Assembly (NCBI GenBank): GCA_034722955.1 | Contig: JAYEOM010000139.1 | Span: 1-28,711, forward strand | Direction of reading: 5' to 3' | DNA length: 28,711 nt | Origin: Campylobacterota bacterium | GTDB lineage: Bacteria > Campylobacterota > Campylobacteria > Campylobacterales > Sulfurovaceae | Shown here: positions 12,432 to 28,711 of the stretch, piece after piece | Layout of the letters: each line of letters opens with the position of its first letter | Numbering within the stretch: the stretch's first letter is position 1 | Program-made: the position numbers and the translations under genes | Notes under the pieces: generated by a model | The model's input: the letters and a program-made list of their open reading frames with translations, nothing else | Told to the model about the DNA's origin: nothing | Database searches by the model: none

Positions 12432-12776
12432 ATGATGCAACAAATTGATATGGCTTCGGAAGAGTTTTTGCGAGAGCTTGAAAAGACTAAAAAATTTACA
12501 GATAAAGTGTGTAAGCAGTTTGGCTGGGAGTACCACCCAAATCATGATGTCACCGAAGGTGTGACGCTAGGGCTTGCTAGACACAAGATACTATATGGGA
12601 GGCGTTTTTGCCCATGTTACATGGTACTAGAGGATCCTGAGAATCTTGACAAACACATCAGTGCAGATAACCGAATCTGTCCCTGTCCTCAAGCGATCAA
12701 TGATGAGCTGCCCAATGAAGGCAAATGTCACTGCGGTATTTTTTGTACTCCAGAGTATGTTGAAGCCAACAAATAA
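12432..12776 (+). CDS. Ferredoxin-thioredoxin reductase catalytic subunit family protein
   Basis: CPC, CPC and CHC motifs; AGGAG RBS. Confidence 0.9.
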   Translation: MMQQIDMASEEFLRELEKTKKFTDKVCKQFGWEYHPNHDVTEGVTLGLARHKILYGRRFCPCYMVLEDPENLDKHISADNRICPCPQAINDELPNEGKCHCGIFCTPEYVEANK

Positions 12777-12802
12777 TATTTAAACCAAGGACGAGATAGC
12801 AG

Positions 12803-13150
12803 ATGAGTAGATTATTGGAACAGAGTATAGTGAGTTCAGAAGAGCTAGAGGAGCTACTGAGAGAGCGAGCTGAAGGCAAGGTGGATTTTTTACTCATTGA
12901 TGTCCGTGAAGATATGGAATACAAGATCAGTCATATAGTTGGTGTCGATCTACTGAAACCTACTTCAGCATTTCAAGATTGGGGAGATGGATTTCTCAGA
13001 GAGACAAAAGATCAAATTGTTATATTTACCTGTCGTACAGATTTTAGAAGTGGTAGAATCCAAAATAGCTTCAAGCAAAATGGACATACTAATGTTCTAA
13101 ATCACTCTGGTGGTATTGTCTCTTATCGTGGCGAAATAGAGAGAGGATGA
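12803..13150 (+). CDS. Single-domain rhodanese (sulfurtransferase)
   Basis: LIDVRE..EY..SHI, active-site loop CRTDFRS, and GGI. Confidence 0.9.
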   Translation: MSRLLEQSIVSSEELEELLRERAEGKVDFLLIDVREDMEYKISHIVGVDLLKPTSAFQDWGDGFLRETKDQIVIFTCRTDFRSGRIQNSFKQNGHTNVLNHSGGIVSYRGEIERG

Positions 13151-14256
13151 TGCAGACAGTAGATCTTTTTATCAAACTATTAAGTTATGAGTCTGTTACT
13201 CCTGAAGATGCAGGGTCATTAGCCTTTATCGAAGAGTATCTAGATGGGTACGATGCTATATGGAGAAATGAGGGTGGTGTTAAAAATCTCTTTCTTTATA
13301 AACGATTTTCGCAAGGTCCTCACCTCTGTTTTGCAGGACATGTTGATGTCGTTCCGGCAGGTGAAGGGTGGTCAAGCAATCCTTTTGTCCCTCTTATCAG
13401 AGATGGAGTGATCACTGCACGAGGTACACAGGATATGAAGAGTGGAGTAGCAGCATTTGTGCAGGCTATGAAAGTGACTGAGGAGTTTTGCGGTACACTC
13501 TCTCTACTCTTGACTAGCGATGAGGAGGGAGATGCGAAATACGGCACCAAGATCATGCTCGAACACTTAAAGTCGATAGAGTTTCTGCCTGACTATAGTA
13601 TCGTTGCTGAACCAACTTGCGACAGAGTATTTGGAGACTCCATCAAAATAGGACGAAGAGGTTCTATCAATGGAGTGATTCAAAAGCATGGCAAGCAGGG
13701 ACATGCTGCATACCCTGAAAAATCTATCAATCCCATCCACAAAGTAGCACAGATATTGCCTAAACTTGCAGGAATCAATCTCGATGAGGGGGATGAGCAT
13801 TTTTCTCCTAGTCAATTCGTCATAACAGATATTCGTGCAGGGATGGAGGTGACCAATGTAACCCCAGGAAAACTCAAGATGATGTTCAATGTTCGCAACT
13901 CGACCAAGACCAATACAGAAGATGTCAAAGTGTTGATAGATCGATACTTTGATGGTATGAATTATGATCTTGAGATCAACCAATCCTCAAAACCTTTCTT
14001 GACCAATCCCAATACAGCTGTAGTCAAAACACTCGATAGTGCAATAGAGTCTATTTGCGGTATCAAGCCTCAGCACTCAACTGCCGGAGGTACTAGTGAC
14101 GCACGCTTTCTAGCTGAATTTGGTGTAGAGGCTGTAGAGTTTGGTGTGATAAATGACTCTATACACGCACCAAATGAACATACAACTATAGATGAAGTTG
14201 AAAAACTTCATCTAATATTTTGTGAAACAATCAAAAACTTCAAGGATGACAAATGA
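13147..14256 (+). CDS. dapE: Succinyl-diaminopimelate desuccinylase
   Basis: FAGHVDVVP, RGTQDMKSG, TSDEEG, GRRGS, GHAAYP, GGTSDARF, IHAPNE. Confidence 0.96.
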   Translation: MMQTVDLFIKLLSYESVTPEDAGSLAFIEEYLDGYDAIWRNEGGVKNLFLYKRFSQGPHLCFAGHVDVVPAGEGWSSNPFVPLIRDGVITARGTQDMKSGVAAFVQAMKVTEEFCGTLSLLLTSDEEGDAKYGTKIMLEHLKSIEFLPDYSIVAEPTCDRVFGDSIKIGRRGSINGVIQKHGKQGHAAYPEKSINPIHKVAQILPKLAGINLDEGDEHFSPSQFVITDIRAGMEVTNVTPGKLKMMFNVRNSTKTNTEDVKVLIDRYFDGMNYDLEINQSSKPFLTNPNTAVVKTLDSAIESICGIKPQHSTAGGTSDARFLAEFGVEAVEFGVINDSIHAPNEHTTIDEVEKLHLIFCETIKNFKDDK

Positions 14257-14660
14257 AGCGACTACTATTAGGCTGGATACTATTGACCACTCTATTTTGG
14301 AGTACTCAGCTTGGTGCAGGGCAGTTGCATTGGGAAAAAAACCTACAAACAGCTTTTCACAAAGCAAAAACAGAGAGTAGACCATTGATGGTGATGGTAG
14401 AGAGTAAAAGCTGCCGATGGTGTGTCAAGATGAAGAAGCGTACACTGGAAGATAGCAGCATAAGCAAGCGTCTAGAGAAGTTTGTATTGGTCAAGATCGA
14501 TAGAGATGAGGTGTCATCTCCTGATATTCCCTATGCCAAATATGTCCCCACTATATACTTCATGACTCCAAACAAGAAGATATTGGAGCGGGTTACCGGA
14601 TATTTCAATGTGGGTGATTTCAACAGCTGGATAGATGATGCCCAGTCAAAACTCAAATAG
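14253..14660 (+). CDS. Exported thioredoxin-fold protein (SoxW/DsbD-like)
   Basis: Signal peptide, CRWC active site, VPT cis-Pro loop. Confidence 0.85.
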   Translation: MKRLLLGWILLTTLFWSTQLGAGQLHWEKNLQTAFHKAKTESRPLMVMVESKSCRWCVKMKKRTLEDSSISKRLEKFVLVKIDRDEVSSPDIPYAKYVPTIYFMTPNKKILERVTGYFNVGDFNSWIDDAQSKLK

Positions 14661-14871
14661 ATAGCAGAAAAATTGATCAACTAAATAATATTTTTTTATC
14701 GATTAGTAGCATCACTATAACTAAAGTAGAAATTATTTATTTATTTCTTCCTATATCATTATATTTTAATCCAAAAACCAATACACTAAAGCCAAGGCAA
14801 ATGCCCTTGAGGTCGCACTTAAGAGGCACTTATAAGCATTATAAGCTTATGCTAAAATTCAAGGAGGAAGC

Positions 14872-15633
14872 ATGAAACTAGGTTTCTTGGTTGACCTAAA
14901 CCTGTGTATGGGGTGTAAAGGTTGTGAAGTCGCATGTAAAGTGGAAAATGAAGTTCCATTGAGCTCTTGGCGTCTGCGTGTCAAATATATCGATATAGGA
15001 ACATTCCCAGATGCATCGAGAAATTTTACACCACTACGCTGCAATCATTGTGAAAATGCACCGTGTGAACGAATCTGTCCAGTCTCAGCACTGCATTATC
15101 TGGAAAACGGTATTGTCAATATAGACAATAAGAGATGTATCGGCTGTGCAGGGTGCATGATGGCTTGCCCTTATGGTGCTATCTATATGGATCCCGAAAC
15201 AAATACGGCTGACAAATGTACCTACTGTGCACACCGTATAGAGAGTGGAATGATGCCGGCATGTGTGGTAGCTTGTCCCGTTGAAGCCAATATATTTGGT
15301 GATGTTGAGGATGATACAAGTCACATCGCACGCTACATTATGGAGCATCAAGGTGCCGTTCAAGTCCGAAAACCTGAAAAGCATACAGATCCCAAACACT
15401 ACTATGTTGGTGGCGGAAATCAGACACTCAATCCTCTAGCACATGAGAGAATCGAAGGGTATGGGCTATTTAACAAGATTACTCACCTAGAGCATGTTGG
15501 AGATCCTCACCATAGTATACTTGATAGATTCCTTGCTCCATTTGCCAGTCATGGTGAAACAGACAACAGAAGTTTTATGGATTTTGACCAGAGTAAAGCA
15601 GAAGAGTCGCATGAACATAAAGGAGGTCACTGA
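14872..15633 (+). CDS. psrB: 4Fe-4S electron-transfer subunit (PsrB/NrfC/DmsB family)
   Basis: CMGCKGCEVAC, CNHCENAPCERICP, CIGCAGCMMACP and KCTYC...PACVVACP; AAGGAGG RBS. The gene symbol is inferred from operon context. Confidence 0.85.
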   Translation: MKLGFLVDLNLCMGCKGCEVACKVENEVPLSSWRLRVKYIDIGTFPDASRNFTPLRCNHCENAPCERICPVSALHYLENGIVNIDNKRCIGCAGCMMACPYGAIYMDPETNTADKCTYCAHRIESGMMPACVVACPVEANIFGDVEDDTSHIARYIMEHQGAVQVRKPEKHTDPKHYYVGGGNQTLNPLAHERIEGYGLFNKITHLEHVGDPHHSILDRFLAPFASHGETDNRSFMDFDQSKAEESHEHKGGH

Positions 15634-16580
15634 TGGTAGAGCATGGTATTGATGCAACACACGCTATTGTTACGATGGATGTAGCGATTCCCGGGATTAT
15701 CTGGGGGTGGATGATTACTTTAAATATGTGGGCAAAAAGTATCGGTACAGGTGTTATCCTGATCGGTGCTTATCTGCTCTATAGGCACAAAAAAGAGGAT
15801 ATGCCAAATCTTAGGTGGATGATGCCGTTGATATCATTTATAGCTTTGAATGTTTTCCTACTATTTACACTGGTAGATCTTCATCAGCCACTAAGGATGG
15901 TCAACATATTCTTGCACCCAAACTGGACTTCAGCTATTACAGTGGGAGCTTGGATGGCATCACTCTTTACCCTCTTGATCACTCTCATGATGGTGATCGG
16001 CGTATTGGATGCCTTCCCTGATGTTGCCAGACACAACGGCTTGGCAAAAAGTGCTAGAGAACATAGTCCATTTTATGAAAAGATCTTTCCATTTGTTATC
16101 TTTTTGGCGATTCCTGTGACACTCTATACGGCTATTATTATGGCAGAGTCAAGTGCTAGGGATCTATGGCAAGCACCGACAGAGATGATGCAGATGCTGC
16201 TAGCTGCTTTTATGGCTGGTTCTGCGGCACTGATCTTGATATCAGACTCTTGGAGCAGGGAGGCTAGAAAAGATTTGGCTCTGGTACTATCTATGGCAGT
16301 CTTCTTTAGCTTTATGATGTATATGGGCGAGTACTTCTTCTCCTTCAAATCAGCAGAGGCAGAAGCGACACTAGCATATGTCCATGCAGGCGGAGAGTAC
16401 AGTGTAGAGTTTTGGATGGCTATGGCTCTAGGATTTATTATCCCGTTCTTCCTCGGTACATCCGTGATGAAGAGTGACAACAAGACACTGTTGAGATTTG
16501 CTGCTATTTTGACATTGGTTGGGCTATATATGGCAAAAGATGTTTGGCTCAAAATCCCACAAATGTTACCGTTAAGTTAA
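15633..16580 (+). CDS. psrC: NrfD/PsrC family membrane anchor
   Basis: About 8 TM helices, DLHQPLR and SAITVGAW motifs; TGATG coupling to the upstream gene. The symbol is inferred from context. Confidence 0.85.
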   Translation: MVEHGIDATHAIVTMDVAIPGIIWGWMITLNMWAKSIGTGVILIGAYLLYRHKKEDMPNLRWMMPLISFIALNVFLLFTLVDLHQPLRMVNIFLHPNWTSAITVGAWMASLFTLLITLMMVIGVLDAFPDVARHNGLAKSAREHSPFYEKIFPFVIFLAIPVTLYTAIIMAESSARDLWQAPTEMMQMLLAAFMAGSAALILISDSWSREARKDLALVLSMAVFFSFMMYMGEYFFSFKSAEAEATLAYVHAGGEYSVEFWMAMALGFIIPFFLGTSVMKSDNKTLLRFAAILTLVGLYMAKDVWLKIPQMLPLS

Positions 16581-16593
16581 GAAGGAGATATTA

Positions 16594-19500
16594 ATGACAA
16601 AATCTATGAATAGTGACAAACCTTCGTTTATCGAAAGTAGAAGAACTTTCCTCAAAGGTACAGCGTATACTGTAGCTGGTGCTGCATTGGCAAAGGGTGT
16701 ATTTGAAACGATTGCAGATACACCGGCTGTAGCTGACAGCAAGTTTACTCCGACACCTAAAACACTTGCATTTTATCCACCTCTAGAGGAGTGGGATAGC
16801 TTTACAGAGTTAGATGGAAATGACTGGAAGAGAGGAGGCACAGGCAGAAAAGGTGTACAGAGTGAAAGCAATCCTGATGGCATCAAAGCTACAGAGTACA
16901 TGTTAGTACCAACATCTTGCTCCAACTGTGAAGCCTCATGCGGATTGACTGCTTGGGTTGATATCGGTCTCTATAAAAAATCTCAAGATCCACGAGATCT
17001 CAAAGTCCGTAAATACATGGGCAATCCGCTTCACGCAGGTAGCCGTGGACGGAACTGTGCAAAAGGATACGCAAGCCAATCACAGATGTATGATCCTGAT
17101 CGTATCCCTTTCCCACTCAAAAGAGCTCCCGGCTCCAAGAGAGGAGAGGGCAAATGGGTCAGAACCACTTGGGAGAGTGCTATGTCCGAGATCGGCAAAA
17201 AGATGAATGATACACTCAAAGGTGGTGATGAAATTTCTCGAAAGTCTATCATGTATCATGTCGGTCGTCCAAATGAAAATGGCTTTGGTCACCGCGTACC
17301 ACACTCTATGGGTTGTGATGGATATGATTCACATACCAATATATGCTCTGCAGGTGCTAGACAAGGTACGATCCAGTGGAGCAATGATGACAGAAACAAT
17401 CCAGACTGGGCAAATGCAAAGTTGATATTTCTTCAATCTTCTCATGCGGCAGATGCAGGACACTACTTCCAGCAGGCAGCAGGGGCGATTGCTGATGCTA
17501 GAAGAAAAGGTGCCAAACTTGTTGTCATGGATCCTAGAATGTCAAACTCTGCCGGTATGGCAGACCTCTGGGTACCTGTTTGGCCGGGGACAGAGACAGC
17601 ACTATATCTCTATCTCGCCAACCGCATCCTGAATGAAAAAGGTTTAGATGGCAAGAGCCAAGTTGATCATGCTTTTGTCAAAAACTGGGTAAACTGGGAT
17701 CGCCTGATGGCAGACAAAGAGTATCTTGGATACCTCGTCGAAAAGGGTTATATCAAATCTGTACCAGAGGGCAACAGCTATCAGGATTTCATCACTATGA
17801 TATCTGAAATGTATAGCCCATATACACTAGACTTTGTCACCAAAGAGTGTCGTATCGAAGCTAGAATAGTTGAAAAACTATATGATATGTTTATCGATGC
17901 AGGTGATAGGGTTGTTACTTATATCTGGAGGGCAGGACCTATCGCACATAGAGGCGGATGGATGATAGCAAGATCTGCTTTCTTGCCGTTTGTACTTCGT
18001 GGTGCTATGTCCGGTGATGAGGGGACTGTCGGTCTCCACCACTGGTCTGTCATCTCTGTCAATGGCAAGGGTGATGCAGCTGCTCAAGCAGGCGTGAGAC
18101 CTCCGAGAGTAGATGTATGGAATGAGATAGCGTGGCCACCTGAGTATCCGCTCAGCACTTATGAGATGAGCCATATCATGCCACACCTCTTGATGGATGA
18201 TGCTTGGCAGAAAAAGTGGGCAGACAAAGGGTTGACCTCTATTCCTAAAAAATTAGCTGTCTGGATCCCTAGAATGTACAACCCTGTCTGGATAAATCCT
18301 GACGGATTTAGATGGATTGAGGCACTCAAGAGAGAAGATAAGATTGAGATGAGTTTCAATCTCTCTCCTACTTGGTCAGAGACCAACTGGTATTGTGACT
18401 ATGTACTCCCTGTAGGGTTAGCCGGAGAGAGACATGATCAGCATTCAGAAGCTACAAGACCAGCTAGATGGCTGAGCTTTAGAAATCCTGCCTTGAGAGT
18501 CGCTCTCGAAAAGATGGGATGGAAACCTGAAGATCCAACCAGAGCAACACTCGAAGCACATGTGAAAGCCGGTCTTGGTGAAGTGTGGGAAGAGGTAGAG
18601 TTCTGGGCAAATATCATGGTTCACCATGTAGATCCTGATGGTTCTCTAGGTGTCAGAAAATACTGGGCATCCAAAGAGGATCCTAGCAGAGCAGTAACTA
18701 TCCCCGAGTGGTACCAAGCGGCGTTTGATAAACTTCCAAATCTAAAAAAAGCAGCAAAAGCGGCTTATCCTGATTCGAAGTATCCAAACTATGAGATGAT
18801 GAGAGATCGTGGTACTTGGCTAGAAGAGGACAATATCTATAGACCTCAAGAGAGAGATCTCCACAAAAAAGATGGCAAATACATTTCACACGGTCATGAG
18901 TACTCTGAGGGTGATGTAGAAAAAGATGAGTATGGTGCACTTCTTGTAGATGATCATGTATTTGGCGGTAAAAAAGCTATAGGTATAGAGGTTGATGGTG
19001 GGTTGAAAAAGGGCTTCCATACACTAAGCCGTAAACTTGAGTTCTACTCAGAGTGGTTCAAAGAGTGGAAGTGGCCTGAATATGCTATACCTATCTACCC
19101 GAAGAGCAGAGAAGAGCGTGAAAAGATGGTACATGTAGTCAGCCATGTACACCATGACTTTATGGAGAAGGATAACGAGTTCGCACTCAATACCGTCTAT
19201 AGATTGTCGTACAATATTCATACCCGTTCAGTCAACTCTAAACATTTGATGGAGATTTCACAAAACCACAACCCAGTCTGGATCAATACCCAAGATGCCA
19301 AACGATTGGGGATCAAGCGTGGTGATGCGATAAAATGTACCATTACAGATACTGTCTCGGGTCTTGAGTCTGGCTACTTTGTCGCTATGGCAGTCCCTAC
19401 AGAGGGTACGATGCCAGGTGTCACAGCCTGTTCTCACCATGCCGGACGATGGAAGCTCAAAAATGCTGTTGAGATCCACGGTTTTGAGCAGAAGCTAGGT

Positions 19501-19938
19501 GTTATGGGTGTAGGTGCACCTCTATATGACATGACGATGGATGGCAAGATAGGAACACTGAAGCCTACGGAGGGTCTCGACAAAGGCATGATGGCACGCA
19601 GGGATAGTTGGCAGTTCAAAGAGTACAACAAAGATCTTGACAACATCTGGTGGGATGGATTGAGCGGTGCTTGGCAAAATGCTGTAGCGCCTTCACATCC
19701 AGATCCAATAGCAGGCAACCACGCTTGGCATCAGAAGATTCGTATCGAAAAAGCTGCCAAAGATGATAAGATCGGTGATATCTTTGTGAACTATGAAAAT
19801 AACTTCAAAGTCTATCAAGAGTGGAGAGACAAACTGACTCGTCCTCTCGATAGTTCAGATATACTTAGAAGACCCGTTCATATGAAGCGACCGGCAGTAC
19901 CTCTGTCTCTCAAAGCGTACAGTGTCAAACTAACATAA
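16594..19938 (+). CDS. psrA: Tat-exported DMSO-reductase-family molybdopterin oxidoreductase (polysulfide/sulfur reductase-like catalytic subunit)
   Basis: Tat motif SRRTFLK; FS0 CSNCEASC...CAKG; YDPDRIPFPLKR; SHTNICS (putative Cys Mo ligand); C-terminal VWINTQDAKRLGIKRGD. Substrate is inferred, not shown. Confidence 0.8.
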   Translation: MTKSMNSDKPSFIESRRTFLKGTAYTVAGAALAKGVFETIADTPAVADSKFTPTPKTLAFYPPLEEWDSFTELDGNDWKRGGTGRKGVQSESNPDGIKATEYMLVPTSCSNCEASCGLTAWVDIGLYKKSQDPRDLKVRKYMGNPLHAGSRGRNCAKGYASQSQMYDPDRIPFPLKRAPGSKRGEGKWVRTTWESAMSEIGKKMNDTLKGGDEISRKSIMYHVGRPNENGFGHRVPHSMGCDGYDSHTNICSAGARQGTIQWSNDDRNNPDWANAKLIFLQSSHAADAGHYFQQAAGAIADARRKGAKLVVMDPRMSNSAGMADLWVPVWPGTETALYLYLANRILNEKGLDGKSQVDHAFVKNWVNWDRLMADKEYLGYLVEKGYIKSVPEGNSYQDFITMISEMYSPYTLDFVTKECRIEARIVEKLYDMFIDAGDRVVTYIWRAGPIAHRGGWMIARSAFLPFVLRGAMSGDEGTVGLHHWSVISVNGKGDAAAQAGVRPPRVDVWNEIAWPPEYPLSTYEMSHIMPHLLMDDAWQKKWADKGLTSIPKKLAVWIPRMYNPVWINPDGFRWIEALKREDKIEMSFNLSPTWSETNWYCDYVLPVGLAGERHDQHSEATRPARWLSFRNPALRVALEKMGWKPEDPTRATLEAHVKAGLGEVWEEVEFWANIMVHHVDPDGSLGVRKYWASKEDPSRAVTIPEWYQAAFDKLPNLKKAAKAAYPDSKYPNYEMMRDRGTWLEEDNIYRPQERDLHKKDGKYISHGHEYSEGDVEKDEYGALLVDDHVFGGKKAIGIEVDGGLKKGFHTLSRKLEFYSEWFKEWKWPEYAIPIYPKSREEREKMVHVVSHVHHDFMEKDNEFALNTVYRLSYNIHTRSVNSKHLMEISQNHNPVWINTQDAKRLGIKRGDAIKCTITDTVSGLESGYFVAMAVPTEGTMPGVTACSHHAGRWKLKNAVEIHGFEQKLGVMGVGAPLYDMTMDGKIGTLKPTEGLDKGMMARRDSWQFKEYNKDLDNIWWDGLSGAWQNAVAPSHPDPIAGNHAWHQKIRIEKAAKDDKIGDIFVNYENNFKVYQEWRDKLTRPLDSSDILRRPVHMKRPAVPLSLKAYSVKLT

Positions 19939-19944
19939 TATACT

Positions 19945-19963
19945 GGGCAGGGTTCTCCTGCCT
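19945..19963 (+). terminator. GC-rich hairpin after psrA (weak terminator or mRNA-stabilising stem)
   Basis: GGGCAGG-GTTCT-CCTGCCT; no immediate U-tract. Confidence 0.4.
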
Positions 19964-20026
19964 GACTCACCTACTACAATTTTCCAGATAAAATTTTATG
20001 ATTTTTTTATCTTTAAAGTGGTATAA

Positions 20027-20184
20027 GGAACCTCCCAAAAACAACTCTACCCATCTGACTTCTCCTTTTGCTCCTAGTTGGATTCTCTCAATCGTCGCAT
20101 AGAATCACTATGCTCCTCATGAGACAATCCAACTAGAAACAAAATTCCTGCGTCATCTTGGTAGAGTTGTTCTTGTGAAGTTCC
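20027..20184. mobile_element. 158-bp palindromic MITE with TAA target-site duplication
   Basis: Left arm GGAACCTCCCAAAAACAACTCTACC...CTAGTTGGATTCTCTCA is an imperfect reverse complement of the right arm TGAGACAATCCAACTAG...GGTAGAGTTGTTCTTGTGAAGTTCC. TAA flanks both sides (20024-26, 20185-87). Confidence 0.8.
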
Positions 20185-20218
20185 TAAGTCCATAATAATA
20201 TAACCAAAGGCATAGAAG

Positions 20219-20860
20219 ATGGAGAAGATGAAACAAGAGGTAGAAAATCGTATTGCTCTATATGCATTGATTTCACGATTGATGCTGATAGAGGCAGATG
20301 AAGAGTTTCTAAAAAAGATAGAGAGTGATGAAGCACTGCTTGATCTCTTTCCAAACTACAAGATATGGGGCAAGAGATCTCAGATAGATATGACTACTCT
20401 TATCGCAGAGTATTACGATGTTGATTTCGCCAATCTATTTTTAATGCATCTGGTTCCTTATGAGAGTTTTTATACTAGAGATGACCAGATGATAGAGAGT
20501 GGGGGTGACAATCCTGTGGTAGAGCTATATAATGCTTTGGATTTTCGTGTAGAGTTGACAGCTGCTAGAGTTGTCAGTGCTGACCATATCGGTATAGAGC
20601 TTGAGTTTATGTATATGCTCTGCACAGCTCAGCAAAAAGCACTAGATGCCGATGACATAGAGGGTGTTTGTGAACTGCTAAAAGTCCAAAGAGGCTTTTT
20701 AAAGGATCATCTCCTAGAGTGGGCTCCACTCTTTCTGATCAATATGAAGCGAGAATCAAGAACAGCACTATATCATGATGGTGCAGAGTTGACACTAGAG
20801 TTTCTACTCAGTGATTTTGAACATATCACAGAGCTTCTATCTACTCACTGTAGTCAATAA
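20219..20860 (+). CDS. TorD/DmsD family molybdoenzyme maturation chaperone
   Basis: PYESFY, DHIGIELEFM and FLKDHLLEW motifs. Confidence 0.92.
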   Translation: MEKMKQEVENRIALYALISRLMLIEADEEFLKKIESDEALLDLFPNYKIWGKRSQIDMTTLIAEYYDVDFANLFLMHLVPYESFYTRDDQMIESGGDNPVVELYNALDFRVELTAARVVSADHIGIELEFMYMLCTAQQKALDADDIEGVCELLKVQRGFLKDHLLEWAPLFLINMKRESRTALYHDGAELTLEFLLSDFEHITELLSTHCSQ

Positions 20861-21966
20861 TGAGTCTAAACTTTGATCTAGCCTCCTGTGTGAGAGCGAC
20901 TAGCAGACTCTCCGAGTGTACAAAATGTATAGAGATCTGTCCTGTCTCTACCTTGGAGATAGTGGAGAATACTCCTACATTTACCCCTTCGGCTTGTATT
21001 GACTGCGGAGGGTGTGTAGGTATCTGTCCTACGGAGGCATTTTCTCTCAAGGAGTTCTCTACTGTTGATCTATTTTTCTCTATGTTAGAAGATGGAGAGA
21101 AGCTGATCTCTTGCAAAAAGAGTATCCCATGTCTTAGCATGCTCACTGTTGAGCATCTCATCTCGATGGTTTTGACCAATGAAGAGGATATCATACTCGA
21201 TTTGGGACATTGTCAAAACTGTGAAATCAGAGATCCCCTCTATGGTCAAATCCTGCAAAATATAGAGGAGTGCAATTTTATCCTATCTAGTTTTAGCAAA
21301 AAAGAGTTAGTTGTTGACTTCACAGGCTATCATCCGCCGGAGCATACAGAGGAGAGTGATATATCATCTAGGCGATCTTTTCTATCAAACATCTCATTGG
21401 GTGGTGCCGTTAGGCAGAAGGAGGCTTTTGATCAAGCTCTTAATGCTGATGAACAAAAGCAGTTTGAGATAGATGATTCGGTTATATCCAAGATAAAAGA
21501 GAGAGAGATCCCAAACAAACGAAAGATACTCTTTACTGCACTCAAAAGAGCAGAGAAGCCTGCAGTGTATGAGATCTTGCCGGAGGAGGATGTGAGCTTC
21601 ACTTCACAAAAGTTTGTTGATGAGAGCTGTACCAATTGTCAAATATGTTACCGCATATGTCCTACGGGAGCTCTCAGCTCTGATGGAAAGTTTTCGCTGA
21701 TAAACTTCGATGCTATGTTGTGTCTCAAGTGTAGGCTCTGTCATGATGTTTGTGAACCAGATGCTATAGGCTTGCAGAAGGGTTTTGAGATCAAAGAGTT
21801 TTTTGAACCAACTCAGAGAACACTTGCATCGTTTGATATCAAGCGATGCGGTGAGTGCGGAGGCTACTTCACCTACCAAGGCGGAGAAGTTATATGTCCT
21901 CGCTGCAGTACAGAAGAGGAAGAGGCTATGATACTACATGAAAATGCACGAAAAATCAATTTTTAG
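20860..21966 (+). CDS. Polyferredoxin (multi-4Fe-4S protein) associated with the molybdoenzyme operon
   Basis: CTKCIEICP, CIDCGGCVGICP, CTNCQICYRICP, CLKCRLCHDVC; C-terminal CGEC...CPRC. Confidence 0.88.
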   Translation: MSLNFDLASCVRATSRLSECTKCIEICPVSTLEIVENTPTFTPSACIDCGGCVGICPTEAFSLKEFSTVDLFFSMLEDGEKLISCKKSIPCLSMLTVEHLISMVLTNEEDIILDLGHCQNCEIRDPLYGQILQNIEECNFILSSFSKKELVVDFTGYHPPEHTEESDISSRRSFLSNISLGGAVRQKEAFDQALNADEQKQFEIDDSVISKIKEREIPNKRKILFTALKRAEKPAVYEILPEEDVSFTSQKFVDESCTNCQICYRICPTGALSSDGKFSLINFDAMLCLKCRLCHDVCEPDAIGLQKGFEIKEFFEPTQRTLASFDIKRCGECGGYFTYQGGEVICPRCSTEEEEAMILHENARKINF

Positions 21967-21978
21967 AGAGGAGGAGAG

Positions 21979-22476
21979 ATGCAACCTCATGAGATAAAAC
22001 CCGATACAGGACTCTGTACGATTTTAGGTTATAATGCTCAGACAGGATATGGACGAAAGTATTTCAATGCTATCCTAAAAGAGAATCACTTAAATGCCAC
22101 AGCCATAGCACTCAATATAACTGATGAGCATTTTGAGTTTACGATGCAGAGTGTTGGTGAGTCAAAAGTAGACAAGATGATAATAGAGAGAGAGTTTCAA
22201 GAGAGAGTAGTTGGGTATTGTGACTATCTCAATAGTGATGCGAAGAGATTTGGATATGTTGATTTTATCGAAGTGACAGATGGGAGAGTAGAGGGTTACT
22301 CTCTAGATAGTGAAGTAGAGAAGCTATTTGACAATCCGGAGTTCTTAGACGATCAGATCCGTTTTGTCACCAAGATGATGCTGATCGCCAACCGATGGTA
22401 TGGTGCGACTATAGAGGTAGATACTATACCCCTCTTGATAGAGAAGAAAAAAGATAAAATGGAGAAGATGATATGA
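21979..22476 (+). CDS. Stand-alone shikimate-dehydrogenase (AroE) substrate-binding-domain homolog lacking the Rossmann domain
   Basis: ILGYNAQTGYG...FNAILKENHLNATAIAL...YCDYLNSDAKRFGYVDFI...GRVEGYSLD parallels the AroE N-domain; C-terminal NRWYG helix; GGAGGAG RBS. Confidence 0.6.
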   Translation: MQPHEIKPDTGLCTILGYNAQTGYGRKYFNAILKENHLNATAIALNITDEHFEFTMQSVGESKVDKMIIEREFQERVVGYCDYLNSDAKRFGYVDFIEVTDGRVEGYSLDSEVEKLFDNPEFLDDQIRFVTKMMLIANRWYGATIEVDTIPLLIEKKKDKMEKMI

Positions 22477-22928
22477 GAGATATCGAAGATCTACGCAAAG
22501 AGTTTGAAAACTTCAATGCCAATGAAGCACTATGCAGTGATGGTAGTTGCGAATCAGAAGAGGAGGTAGACCTCAAGGATTATCCATCCTACACAGAGGC
22601 ACTCTATGCCAAGCTGATAGCTCCCAATGTCAGCGGTATATATATATCCAGATGGGATATTAAGGATATAGCCCTAGCCGCAGGTGAATCCATGGCGATC
22701 CACCCACGCAAGCGAATGTTTGAACTCATCATGAAGTTTGCTGTAACTAAAGAGAATATGCAACTATTTTTGGATGCTTTGGAGGATCATATGGATGATA
22801 AGATTGAGATTTATGAAGATTTGATGAGACAATTTCCAGCTAGCTCAGAGATCTTTGCCCCCAAGATAGAGAAAGCCCGCAAAACGATCAGACTCTTTCC
22901 TCAGATAGTTGATGAGTATTTTGAGTAG
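22473..22928 (+). CDS. Hypothetical helical protein with an acidic CxxxxC N-terminal segment
   Basis: 151-aa ORF with ATGA overlap to the upstream gene; CSDGSCESEEE. Confidence 0.75.
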   Translation: MRDIEDLRKEFENFNANEALCSDGSCESEEEVDLKDYPSYTEALYAKLIAPNVSGIYISRWDIKDIALAAGESMAIHPRKRMFELIMKFAVTKENMQLFLDALEDHMDDKIEIYEDLMRQFPASSEIFAPKIEKARKTIRLFPQIVDEYFE

Positions 22929-22937
22929 CAGATATCT

Positions 22938-23348
22938 ATGATAAGATATTTTACGGCACTTATTATCGGTCTATTGTCTCTTCCTCTGCTTGCCAAATCC
23001 GAGATAACTATCAATATAGAGAAAATAGACAGAGATGCAGAGATCACAATATGCAATAACATTGAAAATAGAGAGATCACATATAGAGGTGTCAATGTAG
23101 AGAAAAAGGAGAAGGAGAGATGGAGATTTGCTAAGGGCAATATCGATTGTCCGTGTGATGCCAAATGCAGAAGAGCAGTAGTCAAACTAGAGTTTGAAGA
23201 GTGTGCAACACATAGATGGGATAAAAAGATGACTAGATGTGAAGTTGCTAGAGATGGAACTTATCGTTTTATAGTTATTGGCGATAGAGATACGAAGAGA
23301 AATGGGACAAATATAGTAGCCAAATCCTCTGAATTTAAAATTCAATAG
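22938..23348 (+). CDS. Hypothetical exported Cys-rich protein
   Basis: Signal peptide; six Cys including CPCDAKC. Confidence 0.65.
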   Translation: MIRYFTALIIGLLSLPLLAKSEITINIEKIDRDAEITICNNIENREITYRGVNVEKKEKERWRFAKGNIDCPCDAKCRRAVVKLEFEECATHRWDKKMTRCEVARDGTYRFIVIGDRDTKRNGTNIVAKSSEFKIQ

Positions 23349-23354
23349 TATACT

Positions 23355-24134
23355 TTAAAGTAATATACTGAAACTAGCACCATCCTTATCATTGGCTACA
23401 CTCAGTTTAGCACCACAATGCTCATCTACGATAGTTTTGGACATATATAGTCCCAATCCTGTTCCGTTTTTTGATAATTTTGTTGAAAAATATGGGTCAA
23501 ATATCTTATCTATGATATCCTCCGGTACACCGCCGCCATTGTCACTGATGATCAAACTATTATGGTTTGCTATTATCTTGATAGTAGGGTTTTCTATACT
23601 CCTCTCTATCAGTATCTCTTCTGCATTTTTGAGTAGGTTTAGCACTACCTGTTTTAGCTCATTTGGATATGTTTTAAAACGCTCTTTTGAGTTTAACTCT
23701 TTAATGATAGATATATTTTTATTAGCTATAGATGTCTCTATTATATTTAAAGAAACACTGACAACATCTTCTAGAGATGTCTCTTTTTTGATCTTATCTG
23801 GCTTGAAAAAACTTCTAAAATCATCTATAGTTGAACTTAGATGCTGAGTGTATTGAGATATGCTCTTTGCGTGTTTTATCACTATCTCATTATCTAGTTT
23901 ATCAAGTGTAGCTTTCAACTCTAAAGATGCATTTGTACTACCGATAGCAGCTAGTGGTTGTCTCCATTGATGAGCTATCATACCAATCATCTCACCCATC
24001 TGGGCTAAGCGGGATTGTTGAAATAGTATTTGATCTTTCTTTCTATTTTTTTCAACCTCCTCTTCAATCTTATTGGCCAAATTACTATTTAATCTCTCTA
24101 TATCAAGTTGATTTTTATCTATTTTATCTATCAT
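23355..24134 (-). pseudogene. 5'-truncated sensor histidine kinase (HisKA plus HATPase only)
   Basis: IAHQWRQPL H-box, NLLKNA, DNGGG, FDPYFSTK, GTGLGL. Upstream in-frame SNLANSFNEM looks like a HAMP tail; no RBS or TM sensor domain. Confidence 0.65.
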
Positions 24135-24996: not shown

Positions 24997-26538
24997 ATGC
25001 AAAAGAATATGATAGCCATCATTACCCTCATCCTCTTTTTGAGTGGTTGTGTTAGTTTGCCAAAAGAGTACCTTAGAACCTCTTCATCGGCATTCATTGA
25101 CTATAAATCTACGAAGATTGGTCGTTTGTTTGAAGAAGAGGCTGCAAAGCATCCTGGCAAATCAGGGTTTAAGCTGATCCCATATGGTCAAGATGCCTTT
25201 ACGGCACGCATAGCTATGGCTAGACTCGCACAGAAGAGTCTCGATCTTCAGTACTATCTCTGGTATTCAGACAAGACAGGTCTAATCCTAGCCCATGAAG
25301 CACTCAAAGCTGCAGACCGTGGCGTAAAAGTCCGTATACTTCTCGATGATGTAGAGCAGAGCGGTCGGGATGATATAGTAGCTGCCATGGATGCACATCC
25401 CAATATCCAGATCAGACTATTTAACCCTTTTGCACATCGAAACAATCACCTGCTTGATTTTATCAGTGATTTTGATAGAATTAACCACCGCATGCATAAC
25501 AAAACAATCGTTATCGACAATTCACTCGTTATCATAGGCGGACGCAATATCGGAGATCACTACTTTGCCGTGGGAGACCATATGAACTTTAGAGATTTGG
25601 ATATCGCGGCAGCCGGTCCTGTGGTACGGCAGATATCATCTGTCTATGATGACTTCTGGAACGGCAAATGGTCCATGCCGATCAGTGCATTGACCAAGCG
25701 AACATATACTAAAGGTGATCTCTCAAGAGTTCAGAAAATGATGGATCAGAAGATTAGCAAACTAGACTTTCCATATCCTCTCGATAGAGATATCAAAACA
25801 CTCAAAAAAGATATGATTCGTATCCGTGACAGCTTTATCTGGGCAAAAGGTCTCTATGTCTGGGATGACCCCAACAGTATGCAGATCCAAGCAGACAAAC
25901 AGACAAATACAATGATCCAAAAACTAGAACAGCGTGTCCTATCAGTCAAAGAGTCTCTATATATAGAGTCAGCTTATTTTGTTCCTCGTCCGGTGGGGAT
26001 GGTGGCACTACAACAACTGCATAAGCGAGGAGTAAAGGTTCAGATCATGACCAACTCTCTAGCATCCAATGATGTCGTACCTGCCCATGCAGGCTATGCC
26101 GGATATCGCAAGGAACTTCTTCGGGCTGGAGTAGAGCTATATGAGCTGCGTCCCGATGCAGGTGCCAATAAAATTGTCAACAGAGAGTTGATCACCAAAA
26201 CCATCAAAACAGGGCTTCATACTAAAGCTATGGTATTTGATAGCAGTTCAGTATTTGTAGGGAGTTTCAATCTTGATCCTCGTTCAGCAGCGATCAATAC
26301 AGAGGGTGGTCTATATATCGAAAGTCCTAAAATAGCCAGAGAGGTCTTGGCATATATGAGAGGAGGAGTTGATCCAAAAAATAGCTACAGAGTTATGATG
26401 GACGGCAGAGGCAAACTTTTCTGGACTACCCATATCGATGGAAAAAAAGTGATTTATCATTCGGAACCAGAAGTGAGCAGATGGAAGCGATTCAAATCAG
26501 GATTTATTGAAATTCTACCCATTGAGTTGCAACTTTGA
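24997..26538 (+). CDS. Phospholipase D family lipoprotein (ClsC/YmdC-like)
   Basis: Lipobox LSGC; two HKD motifs (HNKTIVID, HTKAMVFD); GGRNIG and GSFNLDPRS; AAGGAG RBS. Confidence 0.9.
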   Translation: MQKNMIAIITLILFLSGCVSLPKEYLRTSSSAFIDYKSTKIGRLFEEEAAKHPGKSGFKLIPYGQDAFTARIAMARLAQKSLDLQYYLWYSDKTGLILAHEALKAADRGVKVRILLDDVEQSGRDDIVAAMDAHPNIQIRLFNPFAHRNNHLLDFISDFDRINHRMHNKTIVIDNSLVIIGGRNIGDHYFAVGDHMNFRDLDIAAAGPVVRQISSVYDDFWNGKWSMPISALTKRTYTKGDLSRVQKMMDQKISKLDFPYPLDRDIKTLKKDMIRIRDSFIWAKGLYVWDDPNSMQIQADKQTNTMIQKLEQRVLSVKESLYIESAYFVPRPVGMVALQQLHKRGVKVQIMTNSLASNDVVPAHAGYAGYRKELLRAGVELYELRPDAGANKIVNRELITKTIKTGLHTKAMVFDSSSVFVGSFNLDPRSAAINTEGGLYIESPKIAREVLAYMRGGVDPKNSYRVMMDGRGKLFWTTHIDGKKVIYHSEPEVSRWKRFKSGFIEILPIELQL

Positions 26539-28711
26539 TGAACTATAGGTCTACTCAGATGAGACGGTGGTTGAGTATTCTCTTTGTGGTATCTCTATGG
26601 GCTACTCTTCTGGGTGCAGATAGTGCAAGCAAAAAAAATCTATATAGAAAATCTCAGAAATTTAACAGTGAAGGCTACAGACTATATCATAAAGGCGACT
26701 ATGCTTCTGCTAAAAAGAAGTTTCAAAAATATATATCTATAGAGGAGAAGCGTCTGGACAAAAATGATCCGGATCTTGGATCTGTATACAATAATATAGC
26801 CAATGTTTACAGCAATATGCTTGACTACGGAACTGCTGTAGAGTATTATCAAAAATCTATAGATTTTCATGAAAAATTCTCTGGCAAGATGGCATTGGGA
26901 GCTTCAGCAAGCTATAGTGGTTTAGCCGATCTATACAGTAAGCTAAAAGAGCATAAAAAAGCTATATATTATTTGGAAAAATCCATACTATTGACACAAA
27001 AAGATAAAAAAAATCAACATGTACTCCCACATAACTATAATCAAATCGCATCACTCTATACAGTCACCAACAACCTGCCAAAAGCATTAGAGTACTCTAA
27101 AAAATCATTGGAGTTATTTCAGAAGAGTTATGGGAGATACCACTCACAAACTGCTAAAGCATACAACCAAATAGGCAACCTCTACTACAGGATGGGAGAC
27201 CATCAAAAAACATCAGAGTATTACGAAAAAGCTTCAGCCATCAATGAAAAACTGCTAAAAGATACGAGTCGCGGAAAAGAGAATTTTCTTATCGCTTTAG
27301 AGTATGCGAAGATGGCGAATTTCTACAGTGACATTAACGACCTTAACAGATCACTTATCTATCGAGAAAAAGAGTTGAGTATATATGAAAAGTATGGAGA
27401 TAAAAAAGGTGTCTTTATCCCAACTACATATAACAATATAGCCTCTCTATATTATAGTATGGGAGAGTACAACAACTCATTGAAATATTTAAAAAAAGCT
27501 TTGAAGATAAAGGAGAAGGGATTTGGAAAAAGAAACCCCGAGACAGTTAAACTATACTCAAATATAGCTTATCTCTATCGAACCTTAGGAGATGATCAAA
27601 AATCACTATCTTATCACAAAAAAGCACTCAAAGGGTGCGGAGAGGGGTGCGGAAAGGAGCATCCGAACAATGCTAGTATATATAATGATCTAAGTTTACT
27701 ATATATCAATATGACAAACTATTCCGAAGCATACCACTACGCTCTACTCTCTTTTGACAACTTATTGGCAAACAGGGATCAAATATTTTCTATTTTAGAT
27801 GTAAAGGGAAAAGAGAAATACCTCAAAGATAATATCATACAAGTTGCTCTGTTGATGTATACAACCACATACTACCTTATTGAGCTAAATCAAAAGCAGA
27901 GTACTCAAAAATTCACAGAGACTCTCCAGACGAGTATCAACGCTTGGCTCAACTATAAAGGCTCTATCTTTGATAGTGAAAACTCCATAGCAACGCTCTA
28001 CGCCTCCACCAAAGATAAAAAACTCAAAACAAAGATAGATGATCTAGTCAGCCACAAAAGAGAGTTAGCCAAACTATATCAATCCCTCCCAAAACCAAAA
28101 GAGAGAGAAGAGTGGCAAAAGAGTATCAAGGAGATAGAAGAGAAGATATCAAAGTTAACTCATGATATATCCTCCAAAAATAGCATCTTCAAGGAGCAGC
28201 AGGGTTTAGAGAGTATTGACTGTAGAGAGATTGCATCAAGGCTTAAAGAGAATGAACTCTATATAGACTATGCTAAAGTAGGCGATGTCTATTATCTCTT
28301 CACGCTTGACCACAAAGAGAGTATAACTTTTACATTCAGTGATGCCAACAGTACCAAAAAGATAAACACCCTAGTCAAATCATTTAGAGAAGATATCACT
28401 GCTATTATCAATGATACCAATATAAGTGATAAAGAGTTAAAAACATTAACAGAGAGTTCAAAAGAGAAACTATCACAACTCTATGACCTTGTCATAAAGA
28501 GACTATTAGGCGATACTATCAAAGATAAAAGATCTCTCATCATCTCCCCTGATGGAGCACTCAGACTTCTACCATTTGAGACACTCTATAATAAAGAGAA
28601 TAATCAATACTTTATAGAAGAGAAGGAGATACGATATATACCTAGTGGCAAAGAGTTAGTAAGGCTCTATAGATACTCTAAGGAGAAAAAGTCTAAAAGA
28701 GAGAAGAGTAC
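26538..28711 (+). CDS. Secreted TPR-repeat plus CHAT (caspase-like) domain protein, partial (runs off the window)
   Basis: ATG overlaps the PLD stop (TGATG). Signal peptide (RRWLSILFVVSLWATLLGA), TPRs such as GSVYNNIANVY and TAKAYNQIGNLYY, then AWLNYKGSIFD and LIISPDGALRLLPFETL (CHAT N-part) in the same frame. Absent from the ORF track, consistent with no stop before the window end. Confidence 0.85.
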   Translation, partial: MNYRSTQMRRWLSILFVVSLWATLLGADSASKKNLYRKSQKFNSEGYRLYHKGDYASAKKKFQKYISIEEKRLDKNDPDLGSVYNNIANVYSNMLDYGTAVEYYQKSIDFHEKFSGKMALGASASYSGLADLYSKLKEHKKAIYYLEKSILLTQKDKKNQHVLPHNYNQIASLYTVTNNLPKALEYSKKSLELFQKSYGRYHSQTAKAYNQIGNLYYRMGDHQKTSEYYEKASAINEKLLKDTSRGKENFLIALEYAKMANFYSDINDLNRSLIYREKELSIYEKYGDKKGVFIPTTYNNIASLYYSMGEYNNSLKYLKKALKIKEKGFGKRNPETVKLYSNIAYLYRTLGDDQKSLSYHKKALKGCGEGCGKEHPNNASIYNDLSLLYINMTNYSEAYHYALLSFDNLLANRDQIFSILDVKGKEKYLKDNIIQVALLMYTTTYYLIELNQKQSTQKFTETLQTSINAWLNYKGSIFDSENSIATLYASTKDKKLKTKIDDLVSHKRELAKLYQSLPKPKEREEWQKSIKEIEEKISKLTHDISSKNSIFKEQQGLESIDCREIASRLKENELYIDYAKVGDVYYLFTLDHKESITFTFSDANSTKKINTLVKSFREDITAIINDTNISDKELKTLTESSKEKLSQLYDLVIKRLLGDTIKDKRSLIISPDGALRLLPFETLYNKENNQYFIEEKEIRYIPSGKELVRLYRYSKEKKSKREKS

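Follow-up and report, generated by a model that had tools for sequence, protein, structure and literature searches.

A shikimate dehydrogenase-derived protein without the cofactor domain in a polysulfide reductase-like gene cluster of Campylobacterales

Shikimate dehydrogenase (AroE) has a discontinuous substrate-binding domain, with the NAD(P)-binding Rossmann domain inserted before the C-terminal helix. Within the shikimate dehydrogenase (SDH) family, YdiB is a paralog of AroE. Proteins of the TorD family bind the precursors of molybdoenzymes whose export proceeds through twin-arginine translocation (Tat). Here we analysed a stretch of 28,711 nucleotides (the window) from a Campylobacterota bacterium of the family Sulfurovaceae (assembly GCA_034722955.1, contig JAYEOM010000139.1), in which an AroE-derived gene and a TorD-family gene occur in one cluster. 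Our subject is the open reading frame (ORF) at 21979..22476 on the forward strand, which starts with ATG and encodes 165 amino acids. Its product, which we call protein X (encoded by gene X), is derived from AroE and has no Rossmann domain, and the cluster around it encodes a molybdoenzyme of the polysulfide reductase (Psr) or thiosulfate reductase (Phs) type.

The helpers of the molybdoenzyme NapA offer a parallel to this cluster. The sections of PMC10609526 that deal with them describe NapF as a cytoplasmic protein with four tetra-Cys motifs that aids NapA maturation, and NapF and NapL as not universal. Gene X and its neighbours would resemble NapF, NapD and NapL as operon-encoded, partly dispensable and presumably cytoplasmic helpers of a Tat-exported enzyme with a molybdo-bis(pyranopterin guanine dinucleotide) (Mo-bisPGD) cofactor, and the polyferredoxin encoded next to gene X likewise carries four tetra-Cys motifs. 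They differ in that we found no sequence or fold relation of NapD, NapF or NapL to protein X or to its neighbour p151, and the roles considered here come from gene context. A chaperone of the TorD/DmsD/NarJ type (PF02613) is encoded in the same module and marks a likely functional neighbourhood, but protein X has an alpha/beta AroE-type fold, in contrast to the all-helical TorD fold, and is not a member of that family.

The psr cluster of the window is probably the psrA1B1C1 cluster, which the relevant sections of PMC10045233 place in all Sulfurovum species. Where that transcriptome paper, a second one on Sulfurovum (PMC13609358) and a review on Sulfurimonas (PMC4584964) turn to this system, only psrABC is discussed. 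We found no description of protein X in the open-access literature searched, and nothing relevant on SDH pseudoenzymes or SDH-family classes. Full-text searches of open-access papers found none joining 'shikimate dehydrogenase' with 'polysulfide reductase', or 'Shikimate_dh_N' with 'molybdopterin'.

Relationship of protein X to shikimate dehydrogenase

As a single sequence, protein X matched the Pfam family PF08501 (Shikimate_dh_N) over residues 16-94 with an E-value of 6.5e-5 and 23.5 bits, which is below the 27-bit cut-off. Twelve NCBIfam models of shikimate/quinate dehydrogenases also matched it (best E 5.1e-8, residues 12-111), all far under their cut-offs, as protein X reached at most 32.6 bits with the aroE models and these require 200-430 bits. 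The result was much clearer with a profile built from an alignment of 28 members of the protein X family (alignment A1), which was searched against all PDB sequences. The top match was the A. aeolicus AroE (2hk9, E 9.8e-12), with residues 4-110 placed on residues 6-112 without gaps, and shikimate/quinate dehydrogenases made up 14 of the 15 PDB sequences found at E ≤ 1. On these sequence comparisons, the likeness to the AroE N-domain is weak yet specific for the single protein and exceeds chance, with the profile being decisive. A first-pass annotation, made by a model from the letters of the DNA, had already proposed that residues of about 10-110 correspond to this domain. In the window, the domain occupies 21988..22314 (+, residues 4-112).

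The structural comparison pointed in the same direction. The AlphaFold2 model of protein X, built with alignment A1, had a mean predicted local distance difference test (pLDDT) score of 92.3 and a predicted template modelling score of 0.87. AroE structures were on top in a Foldseek search against PDB (2hk8, E 2.1e-10; 94 matches at E ≤ 0.001), so the structural likeness that the first-pass annotation had left to AlphaFold and Foldseek is present. An AroE chain with 166 resolved residues, 2egg_B, gave template modelling scores of 0.69/0.69 in Foldseek. In VIA-align, model residues 5-156 were superposed on residues 1-266 of 2hk8_A (152 aligned residues, Z 17.5, root-mean-square deviation 3.1 Å). 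The N-domain and the C-terminal helices were both matched up to the end of the AroE chain, and the unmatched part, about 115 AroE residues, was the Rossmann domain.

Two C-terminal helices of protein X (residues 125-164, 22351..22470, +) were taken from the secondary structure of the AlphaFold2 model. The first of them (residues 125-141), which ends in NRWYG, is the counterpart of the AroE C-terminal helix and, as in AroE, packs on the N-domain. In sequence, residues 134-156 matched residues 259-281 of the C-terminal helix of a 285-aa ortholog with a z-score of 4.8, and none of 500 shuffled sequences scored as high. Against canonical AroE the sequence signal of the helix was not significant (local alignment z -0.9; hhalign E 0.14), and the assignment is therefore based on VIA-align and on the match to long orthologs. 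Even so, hhalign positioned the helix correctly, on residues 222-260 of the AroE encoded in the same genome, with the nearly invariant K132 falling on the Gln of the 'MLxxQ' helix. This Gln is a substrate-binding residue in AroE. Protein X is thus the discontinuous substrate domain of AroE, N-domain plus C-terminal helix, minus the NAD(P) domain. The reading of NRWYG as the AroE helix and the idea of a cleanly excised Rossmann domain, both put forward in the first-pass annotation, are borne out by VIA-align and by the alignment with long orthologs.

For the active site we compared protein X with the canonical AroE of the same genome, an intact 264-aa protein (PF08501, 86 bits) encoded on another contig, next to an anthranilate-synthase-like gene. 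That protein has the motifs SHSKSP, NVTVPHK, AVNT and GYNTD and a GAGG-type motif. In protein X the Ser positions of SHSKSP are taken by Q21, G23 and G25, and the SxS motif for the substrate carboxylate is gone. NVTVPHK is replaced by IIEREFQ, with Q74 in the position of the catalytic Lys, and this column varies between Q, G, K, S and C in the protein X family. AVNT is replaced by VDF. GYNTD became GYSLD, in which the Asp is retained as D110 and is mostly kept in the family. We found no Rossmann segment or glycine motif in the 165 residues, and no match of protein X to PF01488. The absence of the Rossmann domain with its GxGG and the replacement of SxSP and of the catalytic Lys had all been noticed at first sight, and they hold in the comparison with the genome's own AroE.

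Judged by the Rossmann domain, the catalytic Lys, the SxS motif and the curated cut-offs, protein X is predicted not to be a shikimate dehydrogenase. The organism needs no such enzyme from gene X, because its canonical aroE sits elsewhere in the genome; gene X also differs from aroE in lying in a molybdoenzyme cluster and not with genes for aromatic amino acids. The remodelled pocket positions of the N-domain are Q21/G23/G25, E70, E72, Q74, D95, L109 and D110. Among the positions of the former substrate crevice, Q21, R26, E70, E72, L109 and K132 are nearly invariant in the family of the window. The MAFFT alignment (A3) was used for columns of the N-domain only, as it misplaces the C-terminal helix of short forms.

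Long orthologs, domain loss and selection

Orthologs at the position of gene X in other families of the order (labelled here f7, f12 and so on) are of different lengths, counted approximately, from the first in-frame start codon. Those of f12 (loci L055 and L056) have 280-285 aa and a C-terminal W-x-G helix, and their Rossmann domain is as detectable as in real AroE (PF01488, 22-24.5 bits, compared with 22.3 bits for the genome's own AroE). In f7, 19 of the 28 orthologs examined are 248-303 aa long (e.g. 253-265 aa in L051-L054). Four of five such long forms that were scanned gave no Rossmann match and one (L081) gave a weak one, and the glycine motif was degenerate in the five that were read. 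The remaining nine f7 orthologs, of 141-165 aa, stop shortly behind the N-domain, and the f8 orthologs have 118-147 aa. The N-domain and the W-x-G helix are retained in f9, f14 and the family of the window. Neither the catalytic Lys nor the SxS motif is left in any of the compared orthologs, long or short. The two forms share a signature around N46, S62 and E72-F/Y73. The long forms thus agree with protein X in these losses and in the position of their gene between those for the polyferredoxin and p151, and differ in that they still carry a Rossmann-derived domain, recognisable in f12 and degenerate in most f7 orthologs.

The long form must be ancestral, as its Rossmann part and C-terminal helix are homologous to those of AroE. 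We mapped the short and long forms on a maximum-likelihood tree of the N-domain with 47 rows (one own-AroE row was dropped as only 40 of its columns were aligned), in which the rows of f8, f14 and AroE have long branches. Five changes between the forms were needed, and the well-supported branches force at least three. The cofactor domain was then lost several times, at least three of them independently, with different boundaries. Enzymatic competence would have been lost before the domain, since even the long orthologs have neither the Lys nor the SxS motif.

The first-pass annotation had reasoned that full-length AroE orthologs would make gene X just a decayed copy. The orthologs of sister families are indeed full-length and AroE-like, so this part stood, but they reveal the origin of the short form and do not indicate a decaying copy. 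They form a natural series that starts with an enzyme-like paralog, passes a stage in which the cofactor domain is degenerate and ends with the repeated clean excision of this domain, while the substrate domain is under selection throughout. This makes the family a rare and well-resolved case of pseudoenzyme evolution through domain loss. What seems to be new is that the SDH family has a branch of pseudoenzymes, characterised by domain loss that recurred, and that this branch is part of an accessory module not described so far.

In a database clustered at 90 %, 909 of 927 candidates were homologs of protein X at E ≤ 0.001. Among the matches listed (120 of the 909), the homologs have 155-167 aa and are named 'hypothetical protein' or, in entries from one source, 'shikimate 5-dehydrogenase', which is a mislabel. 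Among 1.84 billion 50 % representatives only 35 proteins were found at E ≤ 0.001, namely a handful of short clusters and, with E-values of about 1e-4 to 1e-6, full-length proteins that are true AroE or resemble it. The family of protein X is narrow. None of 288 candidates of 290-2000 aa scored as a fused or longer form, which is weak evidence.

Gene X was found in 74 of the 151 genomes of the family of the window; these genome samples are related and not independent. The protein has a length of 151-158 aa in 26 distinct related genomes. No frameshifts were seen in the 74 genomes, and stops occurred only at a shorter C-terminal end. The ratio of nonsynonymous to synonymous substitution rates (dN/dS, NG86 method) was 0.07-0.21 in the closest pairs, and its median was 0.15 when the 35 pairs (of 351) that had 0.05<dS<2 were taken, the remaining pairs being saturated; the duplicate loci L023, L024 and L031 (same genome) had been removed beforehand. 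Gene X is under purifying selection. Ortholog length and dN/dS, both suggested as checks by the first-pass annotation, thus speak for a maintained gene.

The gene cluster and the role of protein X

All genes of the cluster lie on the forward strand. The structural part begins with a PsrB-like subunit with four 4Fe-4S clusters (253 aa, 14872..15633; Pfam Fer4_11, E 1e-23), which is also the first cluster gene in relatives, and continues with a PsrC/NrfD-like membrane subunit for quinol binding (315 aa, 15633..16580; Pfam NrfD, E 2.1e-20), syntenic in relatives. It ends with the PsrA/PhsA-like catalytic subunit with Mo-bisPGD (1114 aa, 16594..19938; Pfam Molybdopterin, Molybdop_Fe4S4 and Molydop_binding). 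The best NCBIfam match of the latter was PhsA (E 2.2e-34) and its nearest solved homolog the Psr of T. thermophilus (2vpw, E 1.1e-32). We recognised a Cys motif at residues 109/112/116/155, a candidate Mo-ligand, Cys251, and, in the N-terminus (16594-16740), the twin-arginine motif SRRTFLK at residues 15-21, where TAT_signal models stayed just under the cut-off. The Mo-bisPGD subunit, with its FS0 Cys motif, candidate Cys ligand and Tat signal, together with the 4Fe-4S subunit and the NrfD-type anchor, gives the cluster the features of a Psr/Phs-type enzyme. The relevant sections of PMC10045233 report no Tat motif for any of the four PsrA proteins of Sulfurovum indicum and place them in the cytoplasm. 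This disagreement might come from an N-terminally shortened gene model, as the conserved Cys given there is at position 171, compared with 257 in another strain, about 86 residues apart.

Gene X belongs to the second part of the cluster. This part opens with a TorD/NarJ-family chaperone (213 aa, 20219..20860; PF02613 (Nitrate_red_del), E 2.8e-16; NCBIfam TorD, E 5.7e-15, under the cut-off), followed by the polyferredoxin (368 aa, 20860..21966), which has four tetra-Cys [4Fe-4S] motifs, a C-terminal CxxC...CxxC ribbon, matches to Pfam Fer4_7 and Fer4, and a NapF-like make-up. The polyferredoxin gene stops with TAG at 21964-21966. The spacer before gene X (21967..21978, +, 12 nt) contains, as read from the sequence, the Shine-Dalgarno-like run GGAGGAG, and the stop codon of gene X overlaps the start of the p151 gene (22473..22928) as ATGA at 22473-22476. 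The strong ribosome-binding site and the coupling to the next gene had been described correctly by the first-pass annotation. p151 (151 aa) has an acidic disordered N-terminus with an invariant Cys21 and a helical bundle at residues 38-150. By eye, we noticed no signal peptide or membrane segment in any of the four proteins.

Searches with p151 were largely negative. Pfam gave only scattered weak matches and none that was consistent, Foldseek found nothing in PDB at E ≤ 0.001, the best match of a wide VIA-align search had a Z of 6.1 with unspecific helical matches, and ESM Atlas returned only unnamed Campylobacterota clusters. We recovered 1093 homologs, and where these are named, all are 'hypothetical'.

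A scan of 14600-23500 for promoters and terminators gave fewer promoter-like sites than in shuffled sequences and no informative terminator. Extra DNA separates psrA from the TorD-like gene in two genomes of the same family, at loci L030 (5597-8325, 2.7 kb) and L032 (11879-17568, 5.7 kb). Together with the 280-nt gap at 19939-20218 of the window, this points to psrBCA being transcribed separately from the four helper genes. We found no RNA runs that contain the stretch; four DNA runs of one study do.

The seven-gene order B-C-A-TorD-polyferredoxin-X-p151 was present in eight of ten 20-kb loci from the same family. The ninth locus was cut at its edge, and the tenth, from genus g11, had only X-p151, with a PsrA ortholog elsewhere in the genome, unlinked from the pair. 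In that locus (L028, 8739-11161) X-p151 is divergent from a gene whose product has Sel1 repeats and, at its C-terminus, a domain like NifU, a type of Fe-S carrier; after it come rplI and hslVU. p151 follows directly 3′ of gene X in all 26 distinct genomes, where the intergenic distance is -4 to +117 nt, and the same holds for 19 of 20 further loci, so the 151-aa neighbour that the first-pass annotation had pointed out is a constant one. Across the family of the window, 70 genomes have both gene X and a PsrA ortholog. Gene X occurs without PsrA in four, whose assemblies are 74-92 % complete, and PsrA without gene X in 14, while 63 lack both; the five genera without a PsrA ortholog are also without gene X. 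Gene X thus travels with the Psr-like operon, a co-occurrence that the first-pass annotation had proposed to check.

The same gene order was found in families f7, f8, f9 and f12. Among 401 genomes sampled over the phylum, a PsrA ortholog was detected in f1, f7, f8, f9, f10, f12 and f14, and not in f2, f3, f4, f5, f6, f11 and f13. Gene X was recovered at E ≤ 1e-12 in 50 of these genomes (f1, f7, f8, f12 and f14), and diverged short forms were present in all eight f8/f9 loci examined (hidden Markov model E 1e-7 to 1e-14). One f14 locus (L059, 9966-13000) has TorD-polyferredoxin-X with a protein X of 170 aa and no p151 after gene X within the 13-kb contig; instead, gene X is followed by a DoxX-like-looking membrane ORF and small ORFs rich in Cys, Gly and Lys.

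In part of f7 the four helper genes stand alone. In genome G479, TorD-polyferredoxin-X-p151 lies between genes for a glutamate dehydrogenase and a major facilitator superfamily (MFS) transporter, 989 kb from psrA; in G364 the distance is 199 kb, and in 13 further f7 genomes the module and psrA are on different contigs. The four genes, for presumably cytoplasmic proteins, are a set that stays together even when apart from psrBCA, and this stand-alone arrangement places gene X functionally with the helper genes and not with the structural genes. The Psr-like enzyme that the module goes with is among the most conserved ones in Campylobacterales from vents and sediments, namely Sulfurovum-like bacteria and their sister families.

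We see about even chances that protein X, as a pseudoenzyme that arose from an AroE-family paralog, is an accessory factor in the maturation of the Tat-exported Psr/Phs-like enzyme of Campylobacterales. The TorD-like protein, the polyferredoxin, protein X and p151 would handle the PsrA-like precursor while it is still in the cytoplasm, ahead of export by Tat, and their step would be the insertion of the cofactor or of Fe-S clusters and proofreading, by analogy to NapD, NapF and NapL for NapA. Action before export is most likely given the lack of signal peptides by eye, the binding of precursors by TorD-family proteins and the precedent of NapF. Protein X would have a binding role through its former substrate crevice, which is remodelled but conserved. 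It could bind a small molecule there, for instance an intermediate of the cofactor, or else part of a peptide chain, and it would be an auxiliary and not an essential component. The idea of an assembly factor working with the 151-aa neighbour, raised in the first-pass annotation, fits the gene context. We regard as rather improbable a more far-reaching version, in which the four helpers form an undescribed dedicated maturation pathway for Psr-type molybdoenzymes: the former shikimate pocket would hold or hand over a cofactor intermediate (e.g. a modified or sulfurated Mo-bisPGD precursor) or grip the twin-arginine precursor, and the useless NAD(P) domain would have been discarded at least three times.

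Several observations weigh against a role in maturation. Gene context and analogy are the basis of the proposal, p151 offers no hint of a function, and the fold of protein X differs from that of every known molybdoenzyme chaperone. Residues such as C13, C81 and E70, and several of the crevice positions, are kept within the family of the window and not in sister-family orthologs, and therefore a single universal binding pocket is not established. Protein X also evolves faster than its neighbours, with an identity of 47-75 % within the family of the window, compared with 62-92 % for p151 and 71-94 % for PsrA (full-length matches). The most direct objection comes from genus g3, where all five genomes examined (99 % complete) lack gene X and keep B-C-A-TorD-polyferredoxin-p151, with the polyferredoxin gene adjoining that for p151. 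The family profile did not find the gene elsewhere in these genomes; in three of the five it gave weak matches (E ~1e-3) to a frame of about 265 aa, presumably the real aroE. The Psr-like system can therefore do without protein X. In those g3 genomes that do have it, gene X is more diverged than anywhere else in the family (46 % identity), and the one g3 row of the tree has a terminal branch of 1.14 compared with a median of 0.17. Gene X is thus the least indispensable of the helper genes, and p151 is the more constant partner.

The same data bear on other explanations. It is possible, though unlikely, that the stripped domain is a ligand sensor or regulator, which binds a metabolite and modulates the expression or activity of the Psr-like system, perhaps via p151 or a nearby kinase. 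The first-pass annotation had favoured a metabolite sensor, with a speculative link to a quinone precursor. The remodelled yet nearly invariant crevice positions (Q21, R26, E70, E72, L109, K132) would suit such a function, as would a histidine kinase without a recognised sensor domain just downstream on the opposite strand (23355-24134), with homologs near the cluster in L032 and L059. However, domains for DNA binding or signalling are absent from both protein X and p151, a kinase match of at least 40 % identity lies within 10 kb in only two of ten same-family loci (a third match has 26 %), gene X is inside a block of maturation-type genes and translationally coupled within it, and its loss in g3 came without other visible change in the cluster. 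We are more doubtful about a working cytoplasmic module for electron transfer or sulfur handling, formed by the polyferredoxin, protein X and p151 as a partner of the PsrC-like subunit or in sulfur trafficking. The four [4Fe-4S] motifs of the polyferredoxin, the rhodanese, thioredoxin-like and ferredoxin-thioredoxin-reductase-like genes upstream (thioredoxin-like, M20 and rhodanese genes recur in this place in other genomes) and the NAD(P)-type domain kept by the ancestral long form in f12 would agree with it. On the other side, one member of the module is a chaperone of the TorD family, which is known for binding precursors, the module can sit 989 kb from psrBCA, and the Rossmann domain was repeatedly lost. 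Nor could protein X connect NAD(P)H with Fe-S clusters, as it lacks any redox cofactor motif and AroE-type enzymes carry no flavin.

We consider it very unlikely that gene X is a decaying or functionless remnant of an aroE duplicate. The missing catalytic residues and cofactor domain, the outright loss in one subclade (g3) and the faster evolution are what a remnant would show, but the reading frame is free of frameshifts in 74 genomes, with the length kept at 151-158 aa and dN/dS at about 0.15, the predicted fold is compact and confident (pLDDT 92), and six families of the order have kept an ortholog at this place in the operon. The chance that protein X is still a dehydrogenase, using an NAD(P) domain in trans, seems to us smaller again. 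The mostly kept Asp of GYNTD (D110) and the kept C-terminal helix would allow it; yet the Lys position is a variable Q74, other residues have taken the place of the SxS motif and of Asn/Thr in the pocket, the module encodes no candidate Rossmann partner, and the canonical aroE is elsewhere in the genome.

Other features of the window

Just upstream of the cluster, at 12432-14660, we noticed four genes, for a ferredoxin-thioredoxin-reductase beta-like protein, a rhodanese, an M20 peptidase and a thioredoxin-like protein (DUF255/Thioredoxin_7), which may be a linked thiol or sulfur-handling set. Several same-family loci likewise have M20, rhodanese or thioredoxin-like homologs 5′ of the B gene, and f7 loci have thioredoxin-like ones. 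Directly after p151, at 22938-23348 (+), there is a 136-aa ORF with a signal-peptide-like N-terminus and no match in Pfam or NCBIfam. It had no tblastn match in ten related 20-kb loci and is possibly strain-specific or not a gene. The histidine kinase at 23355-24134 (-) has 259 aa with HisKA and HATPase domains only, no sensor or membrane part being recognised, and its homologs in L032 and L059 have 43-46 % identity. Further downstream, a phospholipase-D-like-looking ORF of 513 aa (24997-26538) precedes an ORF rich in tetratricopeptide repeats (26535-28709, +), which has at least 725 aa and runs past the end of the window.

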